Positions 2,956 to 61,547 of a stretch of DNA of 64,000 nucleotides are shown here, piece by piece (position 1 is the stretch's first letter; every line of letters starts with the position of its first letter). The notes beneath the pieces were generated by a model. It was given only the letters and a program-made list of their open reading frames with translations. It had not been told where the DNA came from and ran no database searches. This DNA is from Eledone cirrhosa (Eukaryota). The DNA lies in NCBI GenBank assembly GCA_964016885.1, contig OZ024741.1, positions 203,670,001 to 203,734,000 on the forward strand, written 5' to 3'. A program made the position numbers and the translations under genes.

Positions 2956-3564
2956 TTTATTTTAAAACTGATATAAATTTGATGTTAGTCAAAATATAAT
3001 ATTTGTCCTTCAAATAATTCTGATAGCAAGATTGTCAGCATAATGTATATCCTATGTGAATGAAAGTGTATTTAATATGATAATTTTTGGAAAGATGATT
3101 ATATAATCCCTCCTCCACTCTGGCTTTATTTGGTTCCCACCACTATTTCTTTATGGAGTAGTCTTCTAGTAACTCACGAGCCTGTGATATCTGATCGAAA
3201 TCAATTCAGAAAAATTTACTGTTGGCTTCTGTTTCACATCAATATCACATGAGTGGCTACAGTGAGACAAAAGTTTACATTTTCAAGGTGATTATCATCA
3301 TCGAAAGTGTTTTCTTAATAGGTAAAAGAACGTATTTGTATCCTGAAGCTATTTCCGGGATATTTGAGTTGAAATGTTAATAAGGACCTCATTTCATTAG
3401 GGTTAGCAAAATACTTGGTATCAGATATATAAAGGTATGTAAAATAATCTAATAACATTAACATTATGGTCAAAATTATAGATATTACTTCCATTATCTT
3501 TAACCTTTACTATTAGAATTCACCAGCTGTACATTATATCATAAATATTACCTCTTTTCTATAG

Positions 3565-5560
3565 ACGGGACTCACTACGACGGGTATGTTGATTCCATCA
3601 GTGGTGTCAACACCAACAGTAATTGGAATCACCTTATTACAGTGTTTATCTGTTGAGGAAGATTACTGTAATATCCACAGTTTTTCGATTATTGCATCAT
3701 CCATTCTCGCGGCCCTCGTCTGGATTTTACCATTACTACTTTATGGTCCAACGTTTACGCGACCCAGCGACATCTTACTGAAACCATTTCAAGAATCGTT
3801 TCTACAGTTTAACTGGATTCCTCTTTTTCTCGACCAATATTTAATACTTAATTATTACCCAAACGGGTTTGACTCTCAGCAGCACGAGGAGATCATTGGT
3901 GACCTCAATGAAGCTAAATGCAAGAGTAAAGTATTTATCTGTACTACGATGTATAATGAGAAAACACTTGAAATGAAACGACTTTTACAAAGTTTGGATA
4001 ACGTAGCAAGATCACCAAATCTCCAACATGTTTATAAGGAAGCTCACATTTTTATGGACAATGGTTCGAAAGAAAATTCTCTTAATAAAAATTCTTTGAT
4101 ACTTATTTCGTTGATAAAGTCACTTGATAGTATAAAACTTAACTCTTTAAAAACCTACCTCACTCCGTATGGTGTTCAAATGAACTGGATTCTAAGAAAT
4201 GATTTCCAGTTATATGTACATTTCAAGGACTGTCAGAAGTTTAAGGCCAAGAAACGATGGAGCCAGGTGATGTATATGAATTATATTCTGAACTATCGAT
4301 GTAAAATTTTGAATTTAATTGGAAATGTTAGTCAAGCGTTCCACGGGATGGAAAGTTTACCAGAAAATTTCTTTAGTGATACGAAATATATACCAGATCA
4401 TCACTTATCGTATACTGGGAGACTCAAACCAGATGATGCACATAGAAAATTGTGCAAAGAATATGAAAATTCCACTGGTAAAACTATGAGAAACAAGAGG
4501 AGACAACCAAATCACTCTTCGGTTTTAAAGATGGAACTCGGAAAACTGCATAGTATTTTAAAATCCAGATATGGAGAAGCTTACAAGAATATAGATGCAC
4601 GTTCCCCTCAAAATAACACGTATTCATGTAGAGCTGAATTTTCAGAACTTCCAGTTCTTCAGTCGATATCAAATGTTTTAGATTTGCTAAATAAAAGACT
4701 ATATTCCAGATCTATGATGACAAATTATGAATTACCGTTTCAGATTACTAATGAAGAGTCTTCGAGTGAAGAATCTGGGATACAATCCATAGCGTATACA
4801 ATATCGAGAGACAGTTTGGACCTGTGTCATGAAATTACTTCGGAAGATAATATTCTAGATGCTTCTGAAAATGAAATTGAAAGCACCGACATGTCTTCGT
4901 CAAACGATGACCACACTGTTGTAAACAAAGTTTCATTACATAACGATATAGAGGAAAATACTTCTGATTTTACATGTCTTCAAGCAAATACAATCAAAGA
5001 AAACGTACAACAGACTAAAAGAGCGTCAACGTTTAAGAAAAACATTTCCTTCCCAATAATGTATCCTTTAGTCACGGCCCCTCATCAATCCGCAACACTT
5101 CCATTTTCCAATTCTAACTATCCAGTTTGCAACTATAGTTTTGACTTAAAACCTAAGCATTTCATGGTTGAAAAAGCATTCTGGAGTAAAAAGATGCAAT
5201 ATGATATTAAACATGTCTGCAGCAAAGGCAGACAAAGAGGAACAAATCGGAATTGTCTGAATTCATCGACACTTCCTATATCATCAAATTCAAAATTGTC
5301 GCCAAGAAAACTTACCAATTCCGATAAAGACCCTTCAGAAAGCCTGCATTACAATTCATTTCTGAAGTCTAATTATTTTGATGATTATACCTACATACTG
5401 GCCACAGATGCCGACATGGAATTTAACGACAAGAGTCTTTGCCAGCTTATTGACCTTTGCAACCGAGATAAGAGTATAGGAGGGGCTTGTGGTAGAACAT
5501 CACCAATAGGACACAGCAATACTCCAGTGGTTTGGTATCAAAAGTTCGAATATGCTAAAG
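3565..5560 (+). CDS. CHS: Chitin synthase large exon (TM + N-half of GT2 catalytic domain)
   Basis: Motifs CTTMYNE, TPYG, KKRWSQVMYM, ATDADMEF, GACGR, WYQKFEYA; ttctatAG acceptor, AAAG|GT donor (phase 1). Confidence 0.93.
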
Positions 5561-5651
5561 GTATATCACTTCTTTTTCATACATAAATACACACACACAA
5601 ACACATGCACACAAATGCACACACACACACACACACAAACAAACACACACA

Positions 5652-11172: not shown

Positions 11173-13792
<2,620 letters not shown>

Positions 13793-16559: not shown

Positions 16560-16745
16560 TACTCACATACAGATCCTTACACGGCCCTTTACGTTCTGAA
16601 TTCAAATTCCGCCGAGGTTAGCTTTACCTTTCATCCTTACGGTGTCGATAAAATAAAGCACCAGTAATGCACTGGGGTCGATTTAATCGTCTTTCCCATT
16701 CCCTAAAATTGTTGGTGTTGTGTTTAAATCAGAAATCATTATAAT
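16560..16745 (+). mobile_element. SINE copy (family also at ~16170, 17870, 20160, 20330, 24325, 28850, 33270, 43400, 48490, 63825)
   Basis: Shared core gagttcaaatcccgccgaggttgactttgcctttcatccttacggggtcgataaaataaagtaccag with a B-box-like GTTCAAATC. Confidence 0.75.
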
Positions 16746-16793
16746 TAATCTTTTGGAAGATTTACTTGTCACAATGTATTCTTATAATTGCAG

Positions 16794-17285
16794 GTGAAGA
16801 CCGTTGGTTGTGTACCTTAATGATGCTAAAAGGTTGGAAACTGGAATATTCATCATATTCGCAAAACTCAACATTTTGCCCGGACACATTTCTCGAATTC
16901 CTTAAACAAAGAAAACGTTGGGTTCTCTCAGAGATGTCAAATTTAATTCTAGTTTTTGGCAACATACACCGTCTATCGCAAAACAATTCTGCCTTTTCTT
17001 TAATATATATTTTTTATATTCTGCAAATGTTTCTGTTAGTGGTACTATCTCCAGGAACGACAGTTGTTGTTCTCACAGCCTCATTAGATATACTATTTGG
17101 ATTATCATGTATGTACACTACACCATTCGGTCTTGTTGGTTTAATACTCTATACTTTGATATGTTCAACAAAATCAACAGAAGCACAGTCACTAGTGACA
17201 TCAGCAATCACTATATTTCTCGGATGCATTGTCCTCTCCATCAGTGTTGGTTACATGAAATTCTTTTTGCTAGATACACTTCATG
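16794..17285 (+). CDS. CHS: Chitin synthase exon with GEDRW and QRKRW motifs plus TM helices
   Basis: GEDRWLCTL catalytic motif and QRxRW motif; ttgcAG and G|GTAAG sites. Confidence 0.95.
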
Positions 17286-17389
17286 GTAAGTATGTTTTCT
17301 CTTTCTTTTATATTGTTTATTTCCATAGAAAATATCTGCGTATGTGTGTGTTTGTGTTTGTGAGTGATTTAGTATTCCGCCATCCAGTG

Positions 17390-17645
17390 TGAAAAGATTT
17401 CTATTTATGTGTAGACCAATTTTCCTGGCAAAAATTCGAATTTATGAGGTTCTTGAGCTTGATCAATGATATTTTATAGAAGAGCTATGTCATCAGCAAA
17501 ACACCTATCACACATAGCAGTTTGGTAGGTTTCGCTTACTTCTCCCTTGTGTCAATGTAAAGCCGAGATCTTGTTCATTAACATTGACTTCCTTCATGGC
17601 ATTGTCCAGGGTGATTATGAAAAGATATGGTGCCAGGAAGGACAT
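17390..17645 (-). mobile_element. Decayed RTE-type LINE RT fragment
   Basis: LAPYLFIITLD and FADDIAL read on the minus strand. Confidence 0.55.
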
Positions 17646-21236: not shown

Positions 21237-21755
21237 GTTTGTGTGTGTGTGTACATATACATACGCATACACATATATTATATATATATATATACACACA
21301 CATATATACACCCAAATATATATATATATATATAACGAAGGAAATGTGGTAAGGAACCAGGTCGCCCATAACGCACTAAAGTACTCAATACTTAGGGTAG
21401 TAGAGTGGGTAATAGGACCCCGACTGCTAAGCTCAAGCCGTTTCGACGGCTAATTCTTGAGTCCAGAATTAGCCGTCGAAACGGCTTGAGCTCAGCCGTA
21501 TATATATGAGAGACGTAAAATAAGAAAATTATAAAAATTAACTTACTTACTAAAATTTCACTGCAACTAATTAGTTTCTGAAAGGGAATAAACGTAGTTT
21601 CCGAAGAAACGTACGTTTCTTTTTTTATTTTACGTCTCTCATATTATTGTTCTGCATCCCCATGCATTGAACCACAAAGTTACTAAGACAAAACCTATAT
21701 ATTTGCTGGCATAGGTATGCATCTGTATATATATGTTAGTAAATATACTAATTCT

Positions 21756-21829
<74 letters not shown>

Positions 21830-21832
<3 letters not shown>

Positions 21833-23612
21833 GTTTGAATATGTATAATAAAGCCAAAACAATGCAGGTATGGACATAGAAAAAGAATGCAATTGCAAAA
21901 GATATTGTTGACAAATTGTCTTTTACCTTAGATTTATTTAAATGTCCTTAATTTTCGAGATAATATCTCTTCTCCAGAGGGAAATAAAGGTCTCAAACCA
22001 GCCTTCTAAATATCTTGCCAAGCCATGCTGACAGGAAATAGTATAGAGTATCTGTTCTATCTCTAATGTCAAAGAGTTAAAATTAGATGGATAAAGAGTA
22101 GTCTCCCTTTAAAAGGGGTTTGTTTAGGTTTTTTTGTTGGTTTTTTATATACATGCCTGTTTAAGTGTGTGGGAGAATGCATGAAGGTGTAAGTATGTGA
22201 GTGTGTGTGTGTGAGTGTGAGAAGATAAGTCTATTCGTAAATGTGGGGGATAGGTGTTATCTGGTGTTAGAACTGATTTTGTGTGTGTATGTGTGAGAGA
22301 CAATAAGTGGAGGTGTAAGCGTGTGTATGGGGTGTGTAAATATGGGGCTAGAAGCCCTATCAGGTTATAAATTGGGTGTTGAGTTCTAGTCTATTATTGA
22401 TTGGTGGTTGTGTTTTATCTATAATTAGTGCTTCCTTAATTCTAAGATTGCCGAGGTTTCTTTCCTTAGTTTCTATCCTAACTGTTATGGTTTTGTCGGT
22501 GTTTTTGCATTTAACTAGGTGTTTCTTAAATGAGGAAGCGTTAGTATTGAGGTGTTCTTTTATTCTTATCTGGAGTGGTCTGGTGGTGCTACCTACGTAG
22601 AAGTTGTTGCATTTGTCACACTCTAGTCTGTATACGACGTAAGCCTGGTGGCATAGGTCTATGTCGTTGATGGGGCAGTTGGCCAGTCTGCAGCAGCTGC
22701 CACGTCTGGTGGAGTCCCCCGGTTAGCTGTCCGCGTAGAGAAGGACCTGAGTGGGCCAGTTGGATATCTAGTCCCTCTCGTCTGATGGCTCTGCGGATGG
22801 CTGTTGTTGTTTCTTCACTGAAGTGTGGGAGCTTCAGGAAGCAAGTGTTAGTGCCTCGGGTGTGGTGTCCTCCGTCCCCTCCGGCACGGTTTGTGGTGGA
22901 CGTCGTGCATCCGTTCAGCCCGAGTACCTCCAAGAAACGTGCGGCGTGCGTGTCTCGGTCTCCAGCGTCGGTGCATTTATTCCGGATACGTGCCAGTTCG
23001 TTCCCTATGTATCCGAACTTGGCACCGAGTGGGAGGGCCAATCTGAAATGCACGAACAGGTCCCCGCCGGCGGCCCCTTCACAGAAGCAGGCGCGGATGT
23101 CGCCCTCCTCTGTTACCCCGAACTGGAAGTCCAGTAGGGACAGGGATCCGCGGTCATCGGGGTGTTCCATGCTGAACTTTATACTGGCGTCCATGCTGGA
23201 GAATATTGTGTATATTTTGTCTGCTCCTCACGGGATGATGTAAGGATGAGTATGTCATCTACATATCGGGTGAAGAAGGCATGGGAATGGCAGGTGTTGA
23301 GGGCTCGGCATTCTAGCTGGTTCATGTAGGTGATGGCCAGCAGGCCCGATAGGCTGGATCCCATGGGTAATCCTGTTGTCTGTCTGTATGTGTGGTGGTG
23401 GAAGGTGAAGTACGTGTTGTCTACTGTGAAGGACAAAAGCTGGTGTATGTCCGTCGGGTGGAGGCCATAGCAGTGGATGTCCTCTGCGACCACGCAGTCC
23501 GTCAATAAATCGACAGCTGGATGAGCGGGGACTGTAGTGTAGAGGGAGACAACGTCTAGGCTAAAAGCGTATTTATTTAGTTTAAGTTCTTCTGGCTGGA
23601 GTTGGTGTAGCC
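21830..23612 (-). mobile_element. Penelope-like element (second family): RT + GIY-YIG, frameshifted, 5'-truncated
   Basis: SLDVVSLYT, GLPMGSSLS, RYVDD; YVVYRLECDKCNNFYVGSTTRPLQIRIKEH; stop at 22362-22360; degenerate hammerhead at 21945-21982. Confidence 0.9.
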
Positions 23613-23615
23613 TAC

Positions 23616-23775
23616 GTATAAGGAAAAGAAATCGAAAATACAACTGGAGTCTTTTCAAGAATATTTATTTATTTCCTTTACCGGTTTCCCAGTTCTTATG
23701 CTTTTCTTGTGTTTTTTGCAACAATAAGACTTTAAAGGGATGGCAACAGTCCGTCCTCCTGGTATTTTAATCATA

Positions 23776-23809
<34 letters not shown>

Positions 23810-23969
23810 TATGATTAAAATACCAGGAGGACGGACTGTTGCCATCCCTTTAAAGTCTTATTGTTGCAAAAAACACAAGAAAAGCATAAGAACTGGGAAA
23901 CCGGTAAAGGAAATAAATAAATATTCTTGAAAAGACTCCAGTTGAATTTTCGATTTCTTTTCCTTATAC
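23616..23969. repeat. Palindrome centred on an (AT)n tract
   Basis: ~160-bp arms are reverse complements; related to the hairpin at 8571-8746. Confidence 0.88.
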
Positions 23970-24377
23970 TTTCACCCATGTTGGAATCTTGTTATTTTTT
24001 CTTTTTCTTTTTTTGTTCTTTTTTTGAATTTGGTGTATACGTTCGTATGGGTGCGGGTATATTCGTCCCGCCGGGTTTACGTACGTGTGTGCGTGTTTAT
24101 GTGTATGTGCATGTATTTGTATGTATGGCGTGTGTTTTCGCGTATGCACGTGTATGTACGTATATAGATGTGTGTATGTATATATTTAATTGTATAAATC
24201 TTAAATATTATTACTTTTTATGATTTTTAATAACCTCTGTCATTTTCGTTCAACAAATTTATTTACATTATTCTACGGCCGTAACTCAATGACGCCACGC
24301 TTTGCAGCATTGAGTTATGGCCCTTTCCATTCTGAGTTCAAATCCCGCCGAGGTTAACTTTGCCTTTCATCCTTACG

Positions 24378-24542: not shown

Positions 24543-26983
<2,441 letters not shown>

Positions 26984-27704: not shown

Positions 27705-27893
27705 TGTGTGCTAAGCAGCCAAAATATATGAAGTTTGTTTTCTTTTACTTTTTGTTACTTTCGTAAATTGTATCTTTAAAAAATAAATCTTCTTTTTGGT
27801 AATTTAAAAAAAGCTTTTTAAAAATCCTTTTCTGTTCCTAGTTCAATATAATGACTAATTGTTAACATTTATGATTATTTGCACTTGTATTAG

Positions 27894-28318
27894 AAATTCC
27901 TGAACCACAGCAATCCAATGATGTTTCTGGCGTTGACACTTGCAGCCCGGCCAAAGAAAATCTGCAACAGCAAGAAAAAGATTTCTGGGAAGAGCTTCGT
28001 ATCACTCTCCTTGGGACTGATGTCAATTTAGGCAGTGAACAACTTACTTTGAAAGTTCGGCTTAAAATAATGCGCAATCGATTGGTTGGAGTTTTACTGG
28101 TTTTAAATATAATTTGGGTGTGTTTACTTACTAGTCTCTTTCTGACAATTCCGAAACATGATACTATATTTGGAATTATAACCTGTTCAATCTATAGTTT
28201 TTCATTAGTTATTCAATTAATCGGTTTAACTGCCCACAAATGTGATTCCTTCTTCAGACAATTTGTCATTCGAACATTTGGCAAGAAACATCCAATTTGG
28301 ATTCACCAAACAGATTAA
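27894..28318 (+). CDS. CHS: Chitin synthase terminal coding exon
   Basis: EKDFWEEL...LKIMRNR...LNIIW pattern typical of the CHS C-terminal TM region; TAA at 28316-28318. Confidence 0.85.
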
Positions 28319-33409: not shown

Positions 33410-36400
33410 CCCCAACCACACAACACACTGATGCCCCTACACTTCCACAAACTACCACCCCACCCAACAACCCATCCCCACCCTGATGGAAATTGTGCAG
33501 CCCGATACCCGGGACGCAGAGAGGTAAGTGCCTTTTCTCTTCACCACCAACATGGCTATGCTAAGAGTAGGCTGTCTAAATGCGCGTGGCCTGGGATCAA
33601 CTTGGAAGCAAGCAATGCTTCTAAATGACCTCAGGTCACAACGTATAGATGTGATGGTTATTTGCGAGGCCCGGATCAACAACGTGCGACAGCTGGCCCC
33701 CACCTTTGATGACTTTGAGATGCACGCTTCGCTCTGTCAGCCCGGAGGTGGGGGTGGGTTTGTCGTTCTGCTGCAAAAACATCTGGGTCTCGCAACACAG
33801 ACGGTACATTTGGACCCGGAGGGTCGACTAGTGGTTCTGGACCTTGGCAGTGGTGAAGGCGGAGAGTTTAGGTTGGTAGCCGTCTACGGCCCTTTCGGGT
33901 CAATGCGGCCAGACTTCTTCCATCGTCTGGAGACTTTTCTAGGGACGTCCCACTCCTTGCTATTAGTGGGGGACTTGAATGGTATCCTAGATGAACGCTG
34001 GGACTACGTAGGGGCCTGTCCCGATAGAGAGGGGTGTAATAGCCTCAAAGGGTTAATCGGTCGATTTGACTTGGTCCATAGATATCGACTAGATTTTCCG
34101 ACTGCGCCAACCTGGACTTGGGCAAACCGTAGCAGATCATCTAGGTCGTACCTAGATAGGTTCTTAGTTAGAAATAAGGATAAGGACTTTTTAAGTTGTC
34201 CAAAAATGCGCATGGTTGGCTATTCAGACCACAAGTTAGTGACCTGCATGGTCAACCTTGACAGAACGCATAGACAGGGACCCGGTTACTGGAAGCTCAA
34301 CTTGTCCTTACCGGCAAGTAAGGCTTACAGGGACCGAATTAGCACTTTAGTTAAGGAGAGGTTGACGGGCGCCATCGTCAACAGCAGGTGGTGGGGATCT
34401 CTCAAAAGAGAGATTAGAGTAGTCTCTATAGAATTTAGTAAGGAGTTAGCCTCAAATAGAAATAGGAAGGAAAGGGAGTTGGTAGATAGTGTAGAAGAGG
34501 CAATTAGAAGCGGCGACATGGCCAGAGTGCTAGCGTCGAGAACGGCCCTGGGCCAGTTCTTCGACGCGAAACACGAAGGCTGCATCGTCCGAAGCAAAAT
34601 ACGTGCTCTGGGAAACGAGGGAACCAAAGCTGTTAGCTGGGCCTGCGTGACAGAAGCCAAAAGAGGGAGTAGATCCACTATCCGGTCTTTGCGAGACCAG
34701 GATGGATGGGTGATCCTTGAGCCTAAGCAGATGTGCGAGGCTTTTCAAAAGCACTTTGCCAGATTGTTCGGAAGGGGCGCGGTGCCGGTTGGGGAAGTGG
34801 ACTTCGGTCCATACCTCGACGGCCTGCCGCGTCTCTCGGACAGGGAGGCGAAGTCCTGCGAGGAGCCGATTTCAGCCGCTGAGATAGGGGACGTGCTGAG
34901 CCAATGTGGCAAACGCAAATCCCCGAGTCTCGATGGTCTTCCATACGAACCATATCTAGCTATGCCGGACTTGTTCCCCGATCTCCTCGAGGCGGTCTAC
35001 TGCAACTGGCAACAGAACGGGAGAATTTCCAGTGCTGTGACCAAGGGCGTAGTCACGCTAGTGAGGAAGGACGAGAACAAGGGGGACGATATAAATAATT
35101 TCAGGCCCATAACTCTGCTAAATACAGAGTTACTGATTTTGGTCAAGGTGCTAGCAAAAAGGTTGTCGTTTGTCGTGGGAAACCTGGTGGGAGATGCGCA
35201 GACATGTGCTATCCCGACCAGGTCCATCCACGACAACCTCCACCTCATGCGATACATCATAGAGAGCGTTGGGAACGAACCCGGCTTTGGTGGGGCCCTG
35301 ATCAACTTGGATCAATCTAAGGCGTTCGATAGGGTCGACCATGGTTACCTGGAAGCGGTGCTAGCGGCGGCAGGCTTCGGACCCGTTTTCAGGGGCTGGA
35401 TCAATGCCATGCACAGTAGCCGCATCTGCTCTAGGGTCAGGGTGAACGGCTACCTCTCGGAGCCGTTCGAAATCGCGCGGTCCATCCGACAAGGGTGCCC
35501 TCTCTCCTCCCTTCTGTATGTAATGACTCTAGAGCCACTGCTGCGGAAGTTGGAGTTGTTGCAGGGTATCCCGTTGGAATGGGGATTGCGGAAAGCGGTG
35601 TCGGTCTACATGATGACGTAACAGTAATGGTGTCGACGGCCTCGGAAATCGGGGCGATCGGCACCTTACTGGGGGAGTACGAAAGGTTTACAGGGGCTAA
35701 GCTGAACCGGAACAAGTCGACGGTCTGCAACTCGGCACGTGGAGGGGCAGATCGATGCCCTCCGATGATGTCGTCGGGCGCTGGACGGAGGGCCCGGTGA
35801 AGTTGCTCGGGGTCTGGTTCGGACCAGACCTCCAGGTGGAGAAGAACTGGGGTGAGGTAACGAACAGGGTGTTTGCACTAACCCAGAAGTGGGCCGAGTG
35901 CAAACTGTCCCTGAAAGGTCGGCTGGAGGTGGCGAACACTTATATAGCGTCCGTCATCTACTACCGCCTGACCGTTGTGCCTTGCCCAAGGGAAACGCTC
36001 GCCAAAATGGAGCGTGCACTCTTCCAATTCCTTTGGAAGAAGCGGGCTCCTATGGTGAGGAGATCCATCTGCTGTCAACACCTTTCGAAAGGGGGGCTGG
36101 GAATGCCGTGGCTAATGATACGTAAACACGCATTAAGGCTACGGCACCTCCAGGTATTCTTTACCGGTCAACCGGTGTGGGCCCAAAGTTAGTTTGTGAG
36201 GCGAGCCTTTCCCAGACTCGTCTCACTCACCGAGCTGCAATCCTGGATCAAGCAAAGACCGACAAAACTGGGCGCCTGGCACACCGAGTGTGCCCAGACG
36301 CTCACGGCTCTCTGGCGGGCGAACCCGGCTGTCAGTTGAGAATCCACCTCGTCATTCTATAGAGAGCTGGTGGTTAGCAGGTGTGACGACGCCCTCGGAG

Positions 36401-37195
36401 AAGCCCTAGGCATGGAGGAAGACGAACTGGCCAGTGCTACCGAGGGTCTCTGCCCGTTCGAGAAAGGCTCTACAGACACGGGCGCCCGGGTAGGGACCCC
36501 TCGAAAAAGATCTGTCCCAGATGCGTGTGCGACGAGGAAACCGTTGCACACGCATTGGTACACTGCTCGGGCATTGCCGATCTGTGGGGCTATGTCGAAC
36601 AACTCCTGTCAAGGGTGGGACCGATCCGGTTGACCACCGAGTCTATTGTAACGATCAAGCCGCCTCCCCTCTTCAAAAACGAAGGAGAGGCGGTGTTTCT
36701 GTGCGTAATAGCCATGGCGAAAGAGGTTGTATGGTGGACGCGTCTGAAAGGACTGAAGTCAGACACCTTTCTCTCTGGCCAACAACTGGTCCGTTTCTTC
36801 TGATATCATTTCGGAAGAAGGATCAGGATGGGGAGAGAGGTGCTGCACCCCAGCCGTTTTTATGAAAGGTGGGTGAAAGTGGCGAGAATGGCCCGTGTGA
36901 ATGGGCCTTCACTTTACATCAGACTATAGGTGAGGAAGATGAAAGATCAAGGGAGCACCCACTCTCTGTGCTCCTGAGGAGAGGGTTGCACACTTTTTTT
37001 CGGGGGGGGGGCGCCCCCCCCCCAAGGCGCCTCCTCCCTATTGAGGATTTTGTTATGAAATTTATTTTGTCATATTTTATTTTATTTTTATATTTTGTTA
37101 TTGCCTCCTCCTTATTGAGGACGCCTTTTCATGTAAACTCCCCCCATTGTACTTGTCCCACTTTTTGATGCCCTGGTGGCAAATAAAAAAGAAAG
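33410..37195 (+). mobile_element. Tx1/L1-clade LINE, 5'-truncated (ORF1 tail + decayed ORF2 from ~33552)
   Basis: APE motifs (LNARGL, GDLN, SYLDRF, SDHK), RT motifs (FRPITLLN, LDQSKAFDRV, RQGCPLS), frameshift at YxDD, AATAAA tail. Confidence 0.93.
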
Positions 37196-37227: not shown

Positions 37228-40200
37228 ACCAGACGTGTGTAAATTCGCGGAGAAGTTTCCGTTAATTTATGTAAAAAAAAACGTGAGTTTTCAGTTAAAT
37301 TTTATATTATTGTGTAACTTGACCCCCCCCCCCCCCCCGTCTGGACCTTCAGGCTGTAGGTCAACTCATTTTCGCCCCTACAGGGGCGAAATATTCGTTT
37401 GAAAAATTTTTTCTCCATCGAATTTTGGAAAAAATATCGTAAGAAGTTTGATTACGTTATGAACGCTGCGTTCGACGATATGGTGGTGGAGAGTCGGTCA
37501 GACTACATAGCTCGCAGTCAACATCGTCTTCTTCACTAGATACTATGGAGATGGAAAGACGAAATGAAATTGTAAAAACAAATTCATATCCAAACAACAC
37601 AAATGACACCAAACAGTACAATGACAACAAAACTAACAACAACAACACCAATAATGATGATAAAAACAACAATGACAACAACAACAAAGAAAAAATAAAG
37701 ACAACACCAATAATACCAGCATCAAAGACAACAACAACACCAACACCAAGGAAAATACGAATAATATCAACATCAGTGACAGCAAGAATAACAACAACAA
37801 TAACAACAATAATGACAACACCACCAACACGGATAATTACACAAAGAAACCAAAAATCTCCTTTGCACAGACAGTTCAGAAAAAGAAGGAACTGACATAT
37901 CTTGACATAACAAATGCCGAACAACTTTTAAAGGACGCTAGAAAATATGTCACTTTCGAAAAGAATGGTGCTTTCATCATCAATTCTCCGGTAGAAATCC
38001 GCAAGGAAACTGCTCTCAAAACGATAGTTTTTAGGACAGTTTCCAATTCTACCTGAAAACCAGTCCAATTGTCGCAGAAAGAAATTGAACTGGTTTTCAA
38101 AAATTCAATGAATGATATTTGATTCATTCAAAGAAGTAAACTCTTTGGGAGTATTTTGGTACTCATGAAGGATCAATTGACGGCCCAAAATTACTCTGTG
38201 TCGCCAATTGTATCAAACCTGTATACCTTTTTCCCTACATACATGGGGAAAAGGACACAAAAGATTAAAATCACGAGTGTCACACCAAAGGTGAACATAT
38301 GGTGGATATTGTGCGGCTTCATCAATTTTGATGAAGACAGAATACTGTCAGTAGGAAAGTCCCCCAGAGATGTATTCAATGGGACTAGCGTTGAAGTTCT
38401 GGTGCAAATGAGCCCAGAGCGAATAGCTATGATCCCACAACGTGTACTCCTGGACGGACTCACCTACATAAACTTTTCGGTTGAGGGTAGGCGGCCTTCA
38501 TGTTACCAGTGCTTTAGCAGGAGTCACCTGATGGCTTCCTGTCCTAAATTAATGAGTAAAAAAAAAGGCTCTTCTGCCGACACCCATCAAAACAACACAA
38601 CCACCAACACCACCACAACAACAACAACACCAACACACAAAAATAACCACAACAAACACAGTCCCACCCAACCCCACTACCTAAAACCACTGCAAAATCA
38701 CATACAGACACAACAGCTCCCCAAGATATACACCTCCCCAATCACACAGACAATACAACAGATGAGGCTATCTCGCCATCACCCAGTGAAGACGAGGGAG
38801 AACCCCATCGCTCGAAAAGAAAGAAAAGACATCACAAAAGCAAAAAACCAGCAAACACTACCACAAATATACAACCACCAACACAAACAACAAAAATATC
38901 ACAAACAAAACCCCCACCTCCTGAAAACAAAATACCTACAACAAAACGAAAGCACACACAAGAACTGCAGACAAAAACAAACACAACACAAGAAAATTAC
39001 ACTTACACTTACATAAACACTGAAAACAAAACACCAACGGAGACCATCACGAACAACCCTTCGGTTTTCACCGAAGGGAAAAGTTTCGCCCACTCTATTA
39101 AAAATAACAAAAAACTGAACCTAAAACTGATTAGGGTCCCTATACAAACTTATAGGCCCCTAAAAGAAACATTTGAAAAGGATGTGGGGAATTCCTGCGT
39201 GAAACCACTTAACCGCGTCCTTCTCCCCACCCCAGACACCCCCATCCCACCAGACCCCACCCCACCAAACAACTCCGTCTCCACCCCGCCGGAAACCACC
39301 ACCCACCCAGACAACCCCTCCAACACCCCCATGGAAATCGTGCAGCCTGGTCCCCAGGAGACGAAGGGTGAGTGATCTCTTTTCCTCTTTTAACTTTTCA
39401 GCACCAACATGGCCAATATAAGAGTTGGATATGTGAACGTACGCGGCCTGGGGATGCCCTGGAAACAGGGCAAACTCTTAAACGACCTCAGGTCGCACAG
39501 TATGGATGTAGTAGTCATTTGCGAGTCCAGGATCCACAGTGAGCGACAGCTAGCCCCCATCTTCGATGACTTTGAGATCTACGCATCTCTCTGTCGGCCG
39601 GGGGGTGGGGGCGGGGTTGCCGTTTTGCTGCGAAAACACCTGGGCCTCGTAACACAGACGGTACATCTGGACCCGGAAGGTCGACTGGTGGTCCTAGACG
39701 TTGACGGTAGTGAAGGTGGAGACTTTCGGCTGGTGGCTGCATATGCCCCATCCGGGACACCGCGGCCAGACTTCTTCAAACGTCTAGAGACTTTTCTGGG
39801 AACGTCCCGCTCCTTGCTTTTAGTAGGGGACTGGAATGGAATCCTAGATGCACGTTGGGACTATGTGGGAACATGTCCCGATAAAGGGGGGTGTAACAGC
39901 CTCAAACAGTTAATCGACCGATTTGACCTGGCCGATAGATATCGACTAGATTTTCCGACTGTGCCACTGTAGACGTGGACTAATCGCAACGGAACATCTA
40001 GATCGTACCTAGATAGGGTTCTAGTTAGAAATAAGGATAGGGACATGTTAAGCTGTCCACAAATGTTCATGGTTGCCTATTCAGATCACAAACTAGTGAC
40101 CTGCATGGCCAACCTTGTTAGAACCCATAGACAAGGACCCGGCTACTGGAAGCTGAACTTGTCGTTACCGACAAGCAAAGTCTACAGTAGACGGATTAGC

Positions 40201-43032
40201 ACTTTAGTTAAACAGCACTTGACAGGGGCCATTGTCAACAACAGATGGTGGTACTCTCTCAAGAGGGCAGTTAGATTAGACTCGTTAGTTTTTAGTAAAG
40301 AATTAGCGTTAGATAGAAATAGAACCGAGAAAGAACAGGTAGATAAAGTAGAAGAGGCAATTAGAAGTGGCAACGTAGCCAGCGTGCTAGAAACGAGAAC
40401 GGCCTTGGACCAGTTCTTCGACGCAAAGCACGAGGGCTGCGTTGTCAGAAGCAAAATACGTGCTCTGGGAAACGAGGGAGCCAAAGCTGTTAGCTGGGCC
40501 CGAGTGACGGAGGCAAAAAGTGGCAACAGGTCCACGATTCGGTCTTTGAAGGACCAAAACGGACGCGTAATACGTGAGCCTAAGCAGATGTGTGCGGCCT
40601 TTCAGCGGCACTTTGCTCAACTGTTCGGGCAGGGCGGCGCGCCGGGAGGGGCTATGGATTTCGGTCCATACCTCGACGGCCTACCGCGACTCTCAGACAG
40701 CGAGGCAAAGTTCTGCGAAAAGCCGATTTCAGCCGCTGAGATAGGGGATGCGCTGAGCCAATGCGGCAAACGCAAATATCCAGGTCTCGACGATCTACCC
40801 TACGAATTTTACGTAGCAATGCCGGACTTATTCTCCGGTCTCCTGGAAGCGGTCTACTGCAACTGGCAACAGAACGGGAGAATTCCCAGTTCTTTAACCG
40901 GGGGCGTAGTCAGACTAGTCAGGAAGGACGAGAATAAGGGGGATGACATAGGCAACTTCCGGCCCATAACTCTGCTAAACACAGAGTTACAGATTTGGGC
41001 CAAGGTGTTGGCAAAGAGGCTGGCGCTTGTCGTCGAGAAGCGCAGAGATACGCAATCCCGACCAGGTCCATACACGACAACCGCCACCTCATGCGATACA
41101 TCATAGAGAGGGTAGGATGTAAACCCGGCTTCGGGGGGAACCTGATCAACATGGATCAGTCTAAGGCTTTCGATAGGGTTGACCATCGTTACCTGGATGC
41201 GGTGCTCGAGGCGGCAGGCTTCGGCAACATCTGCTCAAGGGTCAAGGTGAATAGCTACCTCTCGGAGCCGTTCCATATTACGCGATCCATTCGAGAGGGA
41301 TGCCCTCTCTCCTCCCTTCTGTACGTACTGACTTTCGAGCCACTACTGCGGAAGTTGGAGCTATTGCAGGGCATCCCTCTGGAACCGGGACTGCGAAAAG
41401 CGGCGTCGGCCTACGCCGACGACGTGCCAGTAATGGTGTCGAGCGCCTCGCAAATCGAGGAAGTCGGCACCTTACTGAAGGAATACGAAAGTTTCACAGG
41501 AGCGAAGCTGAACCGCGACAAGTCCATCGGTTTGCAACTCGGATCGTGGAGAGGCAAACCGATGCCTTCCGAATGCGTCGTCAGACTCTGGACGGAAGCA
41601 CCGGTAAAGCTGCTAGGGGTCTGGTTTGGTCCGGACCTCCAGGTGGAGAAGAACTGGAACGAAGTGACGGCTAAGGTGTTTGCACTCACCCAGAAGTGGG
41701 CCGAGTGCAAACTATCCTTGAAAGGTCGAGCGGAGGTGGCGAACACTTTTATAGCGTCCGCCATCTACTACCGCTTGACCGTCGTGCCTTGTCCAGCCAA
41801 AACGCTCACCAAAATGGAGCGCGCGCTCTTCCAATTCCTTTGGAAGAGGCGGGCTCCTTTGGTGAGAAGATCAATCTGCTGCCAACACCCTTCTAACGGA
41901 GGGCTGGGGATGCTGTGGTAGACGATGCGCAAAACGCGCTCAAGCTGCGGCATCTTTACGTATTCCTCACCGGACAACCGGTGTGGGCCCCGTTCGTGAG
42001 GCGAGCCTTCCCACGACTCGTCTCGCTGACCGAGCTCAGTCCTAGGTCAAGCAAAGACCGAGGAAAATGGGCGACTGGCACATCGAATGTGCTCAGGTGC
42101 TCACAGGCCTCTGGCAGGCGGACCCGGCGATCAGTGGAGACTCCACTTCATCATTCTATAGAGGGTTGATCCGCAGCAAGTGCGACGACGCGCTCGGTGA
42201 AACTCTAGGCGTAGAGGAAGATGAACTGGACAGTCTGTTCGGTAGGACCTTCCACCCGGGACCGATGGACAACTTCCAAAAGTCCCTGGCCTGGCAGTGC
42301 TACCGAGGAGCTCTACCAGTTCGAGACAAGCTCTACAGACATGGGCGCCCGGGCAGGGACCCTGCAAAAAAGATCTGTCTGAGGTGCGTGCGAGACGAAG
42401 AAACCGTCGCGCACGCATTCATACACTTCCCGGGCGTCACTGACCTGTGGGGCTATGTAGAACGACTATTGTCGCGGGTGGGACCAATCCGGTTGACCAC
42501 CGAGTCCATTGTCCTGATCAAACCGCCACCCTCCTTCAAAAACGAAGGAGAAGCGGTTTTCCTTTGAGTGATAGCTATGGTGAAAGAGGTTGTATGGTGG
42601 ACAAGGTTGAAAGGGCAGAGATCAGACACCTTTCTCTCCGGCCAACAACTGATTCTTTTTTTTTCAAATACCACTTTGGAAGAAGAATCAGGATGGAGAG
42701 AGAGGTGCTGTACCCCAGCAAGTTTTATGAAAGGTGGGTGAAAGTGGCGAGAATGGCCCGAGTGAATAGGCCTTCTCTCTATATCAGCCTGTAGGTTGAG
42801 GAAAAGGAGGAGGAGAGGAAAGGAGTACAAACTCTTCGTACTCCTGGAGATGAGGGTTGCACATTTTTTCGGGGGTATGTGTTACCCATATAAACTGTCT
42901 CCCCCTATTGGGGAAAATTGACTAATTTTTTAAATTACATTTGTGGTAACATTTTACACGTTTTCATTGTATGTAAACTTCCCCCTTTGTATTTGTCCCC
43001 TTCTTTTGTGCCCCTGTGGCTAATAAAGAAAC
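37228..43032 (+). mobile_element. Tx1/L1-clade LINE, near full length, decayed (ORF1 ~37545-39375, ORF2 39409-42794)
   Basis: ORF1 CCHC knuckle CYQCFSRSHLMASC; ORF2 APE + RT (YADD) + C-terminal CxxC...ETVAH; several stops and frameshifts; AATAAA then (TATC)n. Confidence 0.93.
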
Positions 43033-53069: not shown

Positions 53070-54958
53070 ATGTTGTTATAGTTTGGGAGGCTCATACTGC
53101 CAATAAAAACACATGCACCTGTTGGTTTTCTCTTTAATTTATTGCAAATTTTCAGCTGGTTGTTTTATGAACTGGATGGTTGCTAATTCTGTGACCCCCC
53201 CAGGGACTAATTTGTTATTTTGTCTCTCTCCTTTGTTCTGTCCTACAACATCTTATTTTTGTGCGCTGTGTACAAATTAGTTGCTGAGGCGGTCACATGT
53301 GACGAAAGAGCTTTGACATTAAACAAATAAACAATCGTCCGGTTATTAAACCAACTATTGATAGTTAAATCTTTTATTTTATGTCCTTATTTCCATTGTC
53401 TAGTGTTTATATGCATGTATTACGTGTTGTTTCTATATATGTAAGTATACTATGTATTAAGCAGGTAGTTGATTTAAGATGTTCTACATATGTTAGTCAG
53501 AATTCAATCATTTCTTATAGATTATCTATAAGATATGTTTCTATCTCTATGTTCTTTAATGTGCCCCTATGTTCTATTTTGGCATGTTGGTATATATATG
53601 AGTTTTTCCGATCCTGAAGTGCTATCCAGTGTTCACTTATCCTTTCTCCTATGCTACGGGCTGTCTCACTTATGTATGCTGTGTTCTTATTCCTACACTG
53701 TCCCTCAGTACATCTTATGCTATATACTACATTCCTAGTTTTGCAGTTAGTTTGCCGGCTTAGCTTGCAGACTATTCCTATCTGTGCATAGGGTGCATAG
53801 GGTTCTTTGAAAGGGATATGTTTTACTAATTAGGGTTTTATGGGAATACCTGGTCTTTCAACTATTTTAATATTTAATTTGTCTAGAGCCCTTCTAAATC
53901 TGCAATCTATTTCGCATTTCGCGGTTGTATTTAAGCACCTTACACTCTGGTATTTATTGCTATCATACCACTTTTTGTTTTTATTTGTCTTTTTCTTAAT
54001 CCTTTCTATTCTATTCCAAAATTTGCTCCTATACATGGGGCAAGTCCCATTCCCATCATTTTCTACAATCTTTGTCCATTTGGTCCTAGCTCCTTTATAT
54101 ACCCTGATCTTGTCTCTCTGATTATAGTCAGAGAACTGCATGTGGTGGATGAAGTGTTTTATGTGTCTATCTAATTCTTTAGGAGTGCACGTTCGCGACA
54201 CGTTCCTCATTACTCTTATGAAAGAGGCAGTCAGTATATTGATTTTCATGTGATCCGAAACAGCTGAGTTTCAGTGGATCAGGTACTTGGAGGTCACGGG
54301 TTTAACGTAATGTCAATGGAGGATTTATTAATATTTTCCAGCGAGTGTTCTGTGTCTAGTACAGGTAATCTATGGTTGGGGTGTTTAGTTGGGTAGTTAA
54401 TGCTCTGTTGGGTGGAGTTAGCTATTTGCTGGATGCTTTCCGTGGTGTTCTTCTCTAATTCCTGACTGTTCTCCTGTGGGAGGGGAGGGGGGTTACTGCG
54501 ATGTTTATGTCATCTACGTAACAGGAGTACATAGTCAGGTTTATACAATTGTCGTCTAAGCGTTCCTTAAGTCTTCTGTACCACCATACCATAAAGAGAT
54601 TAGCTATTTCACCTGTAATGCTAATGCCAATGGCGGCCCCCTCCTCTTGGGCATATGTATTGTCATTAAACTTGAATATGTGTTCTTTAAAGGTTAGTTT
54701 TATACTGGCCCTTACTGCATGTGTGATTGTTTCCATTAATTCAACATGATTTTCGGGGTCCGTTTCGCTCTGGTCCACCCGATGCATCTTTCAAAAAATA
54801 AAAACCCAGTCAGTGAGTAGGTCACAGAATGCGTGACGACAGAGCTTTGACAATATATCGAACCAAACAACCAACCGGAAGTTTATAATAAATAGAAGTG
54901 AAAACCAAGAGGTGCATGTGTTTTTATTGGCTGCATGACTCCCTTAAAAGTATAACAA
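53070..54958 (-). mobile_element. Older PLE copy (family of 11173-13627) with RT and inverted termini
   Basis: GAAIGISITGEIANLFM and YVDD motifs; thumb/GIY-YIG region homologous to 11658-12644; inverted terminal sequence. Confidence 0.88.
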
Positions 54959-57934: not shown

Positions 57935-60900
57935 TCTATATATATATAAAAGGGTAGATGTATGTCTGTGTGTGTGTATGATTTTTATGCATTTCCACAT
58001 TTCTCTTCCAATTTTGATGAATTTTTTTCCAATGTGCTCCAAATTTACCAGGGCAGGTCAACACGTAATTATTTTTGCCAAAAATGTCCTGCTTCTATGA
58101 AAAAAGTTGATAAAACTAAATACATGCTGTAACCCTCTCTCTTACACGCTTCATTCCTCTCACTACTACCATCAAAAATATATGAAACTACATACATGTT
58201 GCAACTCTCTTTAAAAGCTTCATATTTTCAACTACTCCACTCTCAATCTCCTCTGCAACTCTCTTTAAAAGGTTCATCACCCTCTCTACTCCCCCTTCAT
58301 TCTCCTCTGCAACTCTCTTTATAAGGTTACTGCCTCCGTCTACAACCCTATCAACATTACAATTTAGAACAACGGCAAAACTTCTTTTGAAGGAACGCGA
58401 CACAAACTTTGAAACCTAAGCAACATAACAACCATAGCTTTCCTCTCTCTGTCGCTCTTCCCTCTCTCTACAATAGATTATTACCCCTCTCTACAGTCAT
58501 AACGACACTCATACATCAAATATCAAAATTTAAAAAGCCGATAACACTAAATACATACTGCTCTCTCAACGTTACATTTTGCATCAAATAACAAATATTC
58601 AAAAGCAACAGATGAATTTATAAAACAACAAACGTAACAATAATGACCTCTCTATAATTTAACTGCTTTACTCTCTCTGTCGCTCTTCACTCCCTATATG
58701 ACAACACTGCAGAGAGAGAAACAATTTATATGATCAAATGGAGCGTTCCGTATATTCCCCCTCTCTATAATTTAACTGCTTTACTCTCTCTGTCTCTCTT
58801 CACTCCCTATATGACAACACTGCAGTGGAGCGTTCCGTATTGAGCGTTCCGTATTGGCATACGGCTTATCTGGGGCATTTTCAATCGGCTTATTGCAAAT
58901 AACAACCCGCAAAATAACACTTCATATAACAGATTAATGCTATAGACATATGAATCGGAATGTAACCCGTGAACTTTTTCCTGGGCAAAATTATTCGAAC
59001 AGACATGACCTCATTGCCAGAATGTTACATGAATTACAGGAATTACATGACATCGTCAAAGCTAACACGGTCCGTGTGCGTCGGGTCCTAATGAGCATCA
59101 CACGTGTCTGAAAGAGGGGGGGTGTCATGCAGTAAGGGATACCCAAAAAAATTTGTTGACGAGACTCAGACTGGTGTACAGGCGGAGACGGCCTGAGAAC
59201 GGTGGCTTCACCACAACAGTAAAGGGAGGTCAAGTCGACAATAGATAGGTGGTCCCTTACTGCCCGCTTCTCTTGAAAATGTTCAACGCCCACATCAACG
59301 TTGAGTTTTGCAACTCCGTCAAGTCTATAAAATACATATGCGAAAATGTAAATAAGGGCTCTGATGAGGTCACAGAATACCCGGCGAGGCGGTACATCAG
59401 TAGCAATGAAGCTTTTTGGCGCCTATTTGGTTTCCCCCTACACCAACGGCACCACGCCATCGTACAGCTTGCGGTACATTTGGAAAATGGGCAAAGGGTT
59501 TACTTTACGGACCAAACCGCCGCCAAGCTGGCCGCCGATCCGAAAGAAACCACTGTGACAGGTTTCTTTAAACTTTGCCAGTTCGATACATTTGCGCAAA
59601 CATTTGTCTACCCCCAGAAATTTGACAGCTGTCTTGGAAGGGTTTACACTGTGCCCCCAAGTCAGCATGAGTGCTTTCATCTCCGCCTTCTTCTGCATAA
59701 AGTTCTAGGCCCACAAAATTTCAGGACCTCAAAACTGTTGATGGAGAAATATGTGATACGTACCGGGAAGCCTGCTTTAAGCGTGGTCTTTTGGAAGATG
59801 ATTCTCAATGGGATTTCACTTTAGCAGAGGGTGCTTTGTTGAAATCACCTAAAGATCTACGGGAACTCTTTGCCATTTTGTTTCAAAAGTGTGAATTGGG
59901 TGATCCCAAATCTTTATGGGTCAAGTACAGAGACTTCCTGTCTGAGGATTTCCTGCGCCTGGCTCATTTGCAGTATCCTTCAGTGGAAGTTGCTTACAGC
60001 GGCATTATCTACAACAGGGCACTCATTGATATCATCCGATCGCTGCTACTTTGCTGCCGAGAGGCAGGACAGCACATTCAACCTTTAAACTCCCCTTGGA
60101 TTTAGTAAAAAATGAGACACTAACATGCAATATCAGCAAGAGCTCACACGAAGCTCTGGTTCTCAAAACATGTTGCCTCATTGTTTGGGATTAGTGCACA
60201 ATGGCACACAAGTGTGCCCTTGAGGCATTGGAGGGGACCTTGAAAGACATTAGGGATTCTACAGCTCCTATGGGTGGCGTAACCCTTCTGCTATCAGGGG
60301 ATTTTCGGCAAACGCTGCCTCGCATCCCCAAAGGGACAAGAGCTGATGAAGTGCGTGCCTGCCTTAAGTCGTCTACGTTGTGGCCCCAGGTGAAGACTTT
60401 GTACCTGAGCACAAATATGCGTGCTCATTTGCATGGTGACAACATGTCTGCAGCATTTGCTCAGAACATTTTAGCACTTGGTGAGGGCAAGGTCCCTGCG
60501 GATGACAAGGGCGGCATAGCAATCGACTCCCTGTGCAACATTGTGAGCAGCCCTTCTGACCTTTGGTGGGAGGCAGTTTTTCCTAATGTCTCATCTAATT
60601 TTAAAAACTTCCATTGGCTCAGCGAAAGAGCCATCCTTGCTCCGAAAAATGCCATGGTTAATTTTATTAACAAGTAGCTGATTGACAAAATTCCCGGTAA
60701 AGAACACATCTTCAAATCTATCGACCAGTCGTCAGACCCCGACGATATCGTTAATTATCCGGTTGAGTTATTAAATTCGCTTGAGCCTCCAGGGCTCCCA
60801 CCTCACATTCTTAAGCTTAGGGTTGTCTCATTATACTAATAAGGAACTTGCGCCCACCAAAGCAGTGCAACGGTATTCGTATGGTCGTCAAGTCAATGAC

Positions 60901-61547
60901 GTCCCACTTGATTGAGGCCACCATTGTAACGGGGTGCGGGAGAGGGGAGAATGTTTTCATTCCAAGGATGAACCTTTTCCCCTCGGCGTCAGATATCCCG
61001 TTCGATTTCCGGCGATCCCAATTCCCGATGAGACAATGTTTTGCCATGTCCATTAACAAGTCACAAGGGCAAACATTGTCGGTGGCGGGCATCTATTTGG
61101 GGGAGCCATGCTTCTCCCATGGTCAACTTAATGTTGCCTGTTCCCACGTAGGGAGCAGGAATGAACTTTTTGCTTACACTCCTCAAGGGATGACACGCAA
61201 TATCGTCTACAAGGAGGTGCTATAGATGTTGGTGCAGGTGTTGGAGGTGTTGGAGCTATGCCGCATGGAAAACTATTTCCTGGTAGGGTCACCCATGGCG
61301 GACAGATGTGACACCCAGCGGCATAAGGGCCACCATCTTGCAACTTTGGTCTGCTAAATTCGCTATTGGAAGATTATTAACACATCACTGATTGTCCAAA
61401 ATGCTAATTGGTTCGTAACTTTTAATAACCGGTTCAACTACTTTATGCACTTAATTGATAAGCTTATTCGCTATCAAGCCATGTTTACCTGTATGTAACT
61501 TTTCATAGCAAATGATAAACCCGAGCAACGCCGGGCTAAACTGCTAG
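57935..61547 (+). mobile_element. Helitron with decayed Rep/PIF1-helicase coding region
   Basis: 5' TCTATATATATAAA; 3' cccgagcaacgccggg hairpin + CTAG|T. Confidence 0.9.
58985..61225 (+). pseudogene. Helitron RepHel remnant
   Basis: VVPYCPLLLKMFNAHINVE, GDFRQTLP, ERAILAPKN, FAMSINKSQGQT and FSHGQL motifs with stops, frameshifts and deletions. Confidence 0.9.

Follow-up and report, generated by a model that had tools for sequence, protein, structure and literature searches.

The question raised by this locus is whether RNA editing can leave its mark in the DNA of a transposable element. The window, a stretch of 64,000 nucleotides from Eledone cirrhosa, contains a copy of a Penelope-like element (PLE) that the earlier note, made from the sequence alone, described as hypermutated from A to G on its coding strand (22690-23510). 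A hyper-edited transcript was proposed to have been reverse-transcribed and fixed in the germ line. Comparison of this copy with its siblings, scans of other copies, genomic reads and the host ADAR genes were used to examine the proposal, and the coordinates of the features involved are collected in Table 1.

Table 1. Features of the edited PLE copy and its borders (positions in the window)
Feature	Position	Strand	Remarks
Penelope-like copy, EN+, 5'-truncated	21826..23621	-	RT remnant, GIY-YIG, 3' UTR/pLTR
RT domain remnant, RVT_1 (E 8e-13)	23179..23613	-	unedited, including 23480-23505
C-terminal GIY-YIG endonuclease frame, PF01541 (E 4e-8)	22360..22722	-	unedited below 22684
1-bp deletion	23225..23225	-	frameshift relative to siblings
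Edited patch 1	22873..23141	-	32/89 A read G; 5' G 1/20, 3' G 11/17
Unedited gap, 152 bp	22721..22872	-	0/46 A changed
Edited patch 2	22684..22720	-	8/15 A read G; a 2-bp deletion adjoins a run of four edited A
Seven-site A>G tract of younger subfamilies	22718..22769	-	six of the seven read A in the window copy
(TA)n tract, insertion target	21757..21826	.	adjoins the copy's 3' end
Palindrome of 354 bp with (TA)n at its centre	23616..23969	.	99.4% self-complementary

The window copy aligns to positions 1500-3284 of L029, a full-length natural copy. Profile matches in its frames occur in the order RVT_1 and then GIY-YIG, and open frames of up to 802 aa in sibling copies span both the RT and the GIY-YIG domains. 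The sibling frames carry the CCHH motif of the endonuclease (CDKC...H...H) and, upstream of the RT core, the DKG motif (as PSDKG), and their linker, in which CX2-5CxxC is expected, contains three to four Cys at a spacing that does not match exactly. The pLTR of L029 is tandem, positions 1-196 being repeated at 3116-3311. The pLTR position at which copies terminate is 169 or about 209, their optional tail measuring about 40 bp, and inverted 5'-truncated arms are frequent in the family. DKG and CCHH motifs have been described for EN+ PLEs in the consulted parts of PMC8557442, as have tandem pLTRs, inverted 5'-truncated arms and an optional tail of 30-40 bp in those of PMC8557442 and PMC3846280. 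By its RT/GIY-YIG order, motifs, pLTR and arms, the window copy is an EN+ Penelope-like element. No hammerhead was found among 22 Rfam matches (E<=1, 21700-24100), a search in which PLE hammerheads may be too minimal for the models. A 29-base motif of the family has 924 exact matches, and many siblings are 93-95% identical and contain long open frames.

The palindrome abuts the 5' end of the copy via a shared stretch of 6-7 bases. It is likely an inverted duplication of the flank made at insertion, and looks like the product of fold-back copying of the flank from the cut (TA)n target. Rfam miRNA matches at 23707-23877 were rejected, being below the gathering scores and reflecting the palindrome. 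Further inverted or palindromic repeats around (TA)n, partly recognized by eye, occur at 25280-26500 and 21423-21499. Two copies of another PLE family with GIY-YIG frames are located at 11658-13083 and 53515-54790, the first of which has an inverted arm and is 99% identical to many genomic copies, and hence very young. The window also contains two LINE-like elements that have endonuclease and RT frames (33528-36803 and 39394-42567) and, at 59249-61225, broken helicase-like frames that resemble a Helitron. On the plus strand, a probable chitin synthase gene, for which the Pfam match is weak, has exons at 3565-5586, 16745-17392 and 27875-28318; relative to this chitin synthase-like gene, the edited copy would be intronic and in antisense orientation.

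The substitutions of the window copy were counted over 22100-23620 against a reference composed of the commonest letter in each column of 29 other copies. The copy shows 41 A>G, 9 C>T, 3 C>G, 2 C>A, 2 A>C and 1 T>C changes, and 40 of the 41 A>G are clustered in two patches on the coding strand. With 0 G>A, the sense-strand G>A clusters of the APOBEC3 type were not found in the window copy. Over the edited span, the 29 siblings carry a mean of 2.1 A>G per copy (Poisson P about 2e-36), and both the flanks of the patches and the siblings are clean. One of the 40 changes, at 22963, is common to 7 of the 29 siblings and was probably inherited from the sub-lineage of the window copy.

The core of the hypermutated zone is thus confirmed, though as a discontinuous zone interrupted between 22872 and 22721. 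A further patch had been suspected near 23480-23505; it contains no A>G, 21 of 29 siblings have the identical sequence, and it is withdrawn. The residues said to revert to PLE-typical ones by G->A were right in kind: siblings read FYKKAASRDLFVHF and YIRNE, as well as LKLNGY (not LR) at LGLNGC and LTKRH (not LTKK) at LTGG, where 2 bp are also deleted in the window copy. The family comparison and per-strand substitution table that the earlier note had proposed as a check gave a strong clustered A>G excess with G depleted 5' of the changed sites.

ADAR prefers the 5' neighbours of the edited A in the order U>A>C>G, and favours a G on its 3' side. In the window copy, the edited share was 0.39 after T (7/18), 0.39 after A (15/38), 0.28 after C (16/58) and 0.06 after G (2/36), so that A following G was spared relative to all other A (2/36 vs 38/114, Fisher p=4e-4). 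This 5'-G depletion matches the ADAR context. Among 3' neighbours G had the highest share (13/35), an enrichment that is significant in patch 1 (p=0.008) but not over the whole cluster (p=0.085). The changes display neither a TpA restriction nor a two-strand pattern, and they are without a codon filter (11 synonymous and 29 non-synonymous among edited A, 20 and 45 among unedited A). Distinct neighbour preferences are reported to exist in squid editing (PMC4384741, in part). An ADAR-type footprint in this PLE copy that is real, rare and fixed in DNA is very probable.

Other copies were examined by a family scan of 302 aligned segments (208 of 222 loci), each of which was scored against its nearest neighbours. 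Private sense-strand A>G bursts were judged convincing in the window copy, L032 and L107. The burst of L032 comprises 9 A>G within 63 bp on a sub-lineage background different from that of the window copy. Seven of eight L032 sites coincide with changed sites of the window copy (over 24 A, p=0.002; without A after G, p=0.06), a figure biased by the fact that L032 was located through its resemblance to the window copy. In L107, a member of the youngest subfamily, 5 A>G occur within 53 bp of the 3' UTR and are present in both arms of its inverted structure. None of the 21 sites of L032, L107 and the seven-site tract discussed below follows G (expected share 0.19, P=0.011). A fourth copy, L138, has 4 A>G in 92 bp and is a weak case, and the four-site groups of L145 and L165 were not counted as bursts, as their sites are common to both. 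Other substitution types also form clusters of at least four changes among the 302 segments (C>T three times; G>A, C>A and T>C once each). Most of these are in copies of greater divergence, so that small clusters alone prove little. The sole T>C cluster is a weak one of four sites in a repeat-rich UTR, in an arm of 86% identity.

Heavy editing is rare. More than five clustered private A>G were found in 0 of 149 position-listed loci. Three motif searches, each with one G needed at a favoured site, gave 3, 2 and 6 matches, among which the window copy alone was hyper-edited; their sensitivity is partial, since the first motif missed L032 owing to a private change. The search for other such copies, which the earlier note had suggested for the genome, thus yielded the bursts of L032 and L107 among the 208 loci and, with the three motifs, no further heavy case. 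A second PLE family, taken from window positions 11660-12350, contained no cluster in 51 segments from 30 loci, a sample biased to near-identical copies. Heavy editing is known from the window copy and one other, the latter from a targeted search, and probably affects less than 1% of copies. A diffuse family-wide A>G excess was not found by the nearest-neighbour yardstick (A>G 3.56 vs T>C 4.29 per 1000, with no 5'-G effect) or in a first background count with about three copies left out (3.14 vs 3.78 per 1000), which argues that editing is a rare accident and not a main defence. The idea of an effective defence against PLEs is accordingly not supported: no heavy case occurs in the position-listed loci, background A>G does not exceed T>C, and the window copy is 5'-truncated and dead anyway. 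The count over those loci points to a rare mutagen instead of defence by mutation.

Clusters of one type on one strand would also be produced by polymerase error of the PLE RT, which under unbalanced dNTP pools would have placed G opposite T in bursts while making the second strand. Biased nucleotide pools cause hypermutagenesis by retroviral RT, and runs of A are frequently changed in the window copy (AAA 6/11, AAG 6/9). Slippage, however, predicts extra G after G, yet A after G is the most spared class, and nucleotide pools leave unexplained why an independent copy was changed at sites that are also changed here. Polymerase error is accordingly regarded as very improbable.

The agent favoured here, ADAR, is encoded by the host. 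A_deamin matches were found at three multi-exon host loci, and the host ADAR2 carries the CHAE motif and is 95% identical to Octopus vulgaris ADAR2, in agreement with the coleoid host that had been assumed from the sequence. Very probably, the A>G cluster arose from host ADAR editing of duplexed element RNA followed by reverse transcription. Read-through of an inverted locus, or antisense RNA, would give a long duplex with the element RNA, the sense strand of which would be hyper-edited by the host ADAR. The PLE enzyme would then copy the sense RNA from its 3' end into germ-line DNA, reading inosine as G, and copying would stop at 23621 before the product was joined to the flank. The proposal that a hyper-edited transcript entered the germ line in this way has the footprint, its context and the ADAR2 gene in its favour; ADAR as the agent, the source of the duplex and sense RNA as the template are what we infer from them. 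Most hyper-edited products would be dead, truncated copies.

The suggestion that fold-back RNAs of PLEs are the ADAR substrate agrees with the abundance of head-to-head inverted copies (26 of the first 100 matches listed, forming 13 pairs by hand count), although a specific partner was not found. Neither a duplex partner for the edited zone nor a deletion that would account for the 152-bp unedited gap was identified in the inverted arms examined (deletions listed for 5 loci). The predicted RNA fold of the edited zone is modest (z -2.1). One near full-length locus, L198 (G000:C4:289664500-289674000), has a 2.2-kb inverted arm and sub-lineage markers in common with the window copy, and represents a candidate type of fold-back source. 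Those markers are its only link to the window copy, and no source locus is assigned.

Bursts confined to the sense strand fit a sense-RNA template of PLE reverse transcription. An antisense template was earlier proposed for PLEs (PMC3846280), and RNA across the pLTR-ORF junction was used in an in vitro study of an anole PLE (PMC11167929), as far as the consulted parts of these papers show. Host pre-mRNA is disfavoured as the source of the edits because it would give T>C on the element strand, which was not seen. A related alternative is deamination of DNA, either by ADAR acting on the DNA of an RNA:cDNA hybrid, which needs an antisense template, or by an adenine deaminase acting on single-stranded DNA. 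Besides the antisense template proposed for PLEs, the editing of DNA in retroviral hybrids was left open in the part of a review that was consulted (PMC12925331). An antisense template combined with ordinary RNA editing would, however, lead to T>C bursts, of which the single weak cluster in 302 segments is the only instance, and the lack of a TpA restriction and of a two-strand pattern also speaks against DNA deamination, which is held to be just as improbable as polymerase error.

A second group of A>G changes concerns the history of the family. Seven A>G within 52 bp mark a sub-lineage; none of them follows G and five are synonymous. In the oldest group (median neighbour distance 2.78%), A is present in 30/30 copies at five of the sites and in 29/30 at two, and in the middle group (1.38%) in 48-50 of 50 copies at the tract sites. 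The three younger groups (1.08%, 0.97% and 0.31%) have G at the tract, with the exception of one site at which the youngest has A (17/17), and both youngest subfamilies carry 6-7 of the seven sites. The order of the groups in a tree (midpoint root, seven sites excluded) agrees with their ages. At the step at which the tract appears, 9 of 12 fixed differences are A>G, as compared with 8 of 72 at other steps (p=1e-5). A separate sub-lineage has two of the seven sites. Of 470 genome matches, the first 100 were counted by hand: 60 are all A, 26 are all G (six sites covered) and 14 are partial.

The same tract was changed again at a later step (Y1 to Y2), in which it contains 6 of 19 fixed changes, of other types and all synonymous. 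As a side observation, changes fixed in lineages, most of them synonymous, form a hot spot in L029 2345-2402 (window 22775-22718; 7/12, 6/19 and none in two other steps), which may reflect escape from silencing. The hot spot at the tract may thus have a different cause, for instance recombination or selection for evasion of silencing. The RNA fold of the tract is unremarkable (z -0.3), and a local hairpin as its ADAR substrate is therefore unsupported. An ADAR burst in a source element, inherited by the youngest and probably still active subfamilies, has a slightly better than even chance of being correct; editing would then be a lineage-founding heritable mutagen. A mostly synonymous tract is expected if selection retained a tolerable burst. 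The notion of editing as a heritable mutagen thus holds for a rare event and perhaps also for the founding of a lineage. If the founder reading is true, host RNA editing wrote part of the sequence of a living element, and footprints on the sense strand alone would indicate that in vivo PLEs are copied from sense RNA. If the tract is a product of editing, an edited RNA founded a successful lineage, whereby changes made in RNA would have become fixed in the genome.

Both patches and the seven-site tract might instead stem from a diverged relative rich in G, by recombination or gene conversion, for which the sharp edges of the patches and the other changes at the tract hot spot in the Y1 to Y2 step could be cited. 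A diverged donor would, however, bring all substitution types, mostly synonymous, and 29 of the 40 changes here are non-synonymous; moreover, the G run of the window copy was found in no other copy (the 1 of 3 and 1 of 6 motif matches that contain it are the window copy). Gene conversion is accordingly considered less probable still than polymerase error or DNA deamination.

Four short-read runs were compared with the window, and X4 and X5 may come from the assembled individual. A contig of X5 with a depth of 14.3 has the window letters at 22919-22921 and no other letter, and the same residual depth (14.3) was found in X5 at 22901, 22928 and 23005. In X4 the residual depth was about 7 at 22938, 22942, 22945 and 23040. 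Because the read depth of the PLE family is in the thousands to tens of thousands, these low-depth contigs look single-copy with window letters. No contig with window letters was found in the four runs at 22873-22882 or 22700-22720. The k-mer shares of X4 (0.43) and X5 (0.39), slightly higher than the 0.32 accounted for by sibling copies, were set aside as evidence; those of X1-X3 were small. Confirmation in genomic reads, for which the earlier note had asked, was thus obtained at several sites in X4 and X5 but not at those two intervals; read support is partial, yet it argues against assembly error. A sequencing or assembly artefact is the least probable explanation of all: clusters resembling those of editing can arise from systematic errors (G-to-A in Sanger traces, according to the consulted part of PMC2873906) and edited sites are only partially supported by reads, yet contigs at single-copy depth carry the window letters at several sites, the context is that of ADAR, and flanks and siblings are clean.

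The products of A-to-I editing are normally lost with the RNA, and the window copy preserves a single edited molecule in the form of DNA. This molecule arose in a cell lineage reaching the germ line, and the animal belongs to the group in which editing is the heaviest known. ADAR editing of the RNA of an insertion-competent retrotransposon thereby becomes testable; in HeLa/293T cell culture, editing of human L1 RNA was not detected, according to the consulted part of PMC5224506. Footprints confined to the sense strand could also mark which strand PLE reverse transcription uses as its template, a matter of debate.

The window family is similar to canonical EN+ PLEs, as described in the consulted parts of PMC8557442, PMC3846280 and PMC11167929, in possessing RT and C-terminal GIY-YIG domains, a pLTR, inverted arms, microsatellite targets and an optional tail of some 40 bp. 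Unlike the window copy, no editing footprint was met in those parts of the three papers. In the part of the literature covered, no ADAR footprints in genomic PLE or non-LTR copies were found.

APOBEC3 DNA editing of retrotransposons has reportedly been found recorded in genomes (Carmi 2011; Knisbacher and Levanon 2016). It too leaves deaminase footprints fixed in genomic copies, as same-type clusters relative to siblings (PMC2873906, in part). APOBEC produces sense-strand G>A through cDNA editing, whereas the window copy shows A>G in an ADAR context and no G>A. In coleoids, editing of repeats shares the host group, the enzyme class and the clustering of the edits (PMC9068888 and PMC4384741, in the parts consulted), and editing outside the nervous system of squid is described as widespread and aimed at repeats (PMC9068888). 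Those edits are transient and confined to RNA, whereas the changes of the window copy are in DNA. The closest parallel in reverse-transcribed DNA is the ADAR A-to-G hypermutation described for Rous-associated virus, avian leukosis virus, HTLV-2 and STLV-3 in the consulted part of a review (PMC12925331). The retroviral cases share clustered A-to-G changes with the window copy, affect up to about half of the adenosines and are tied to inverted-repeat or LTR regions. A-to-G hypermutation is thus known in retroviruses, and what is new here is its footprint in a genomic PLE copy: the retroviral cases are exogenous, whereas the window copy is an endogenous non-LTR PLE, the footprint of which recurs in other copies and was perhaps inherited by an active lineage.
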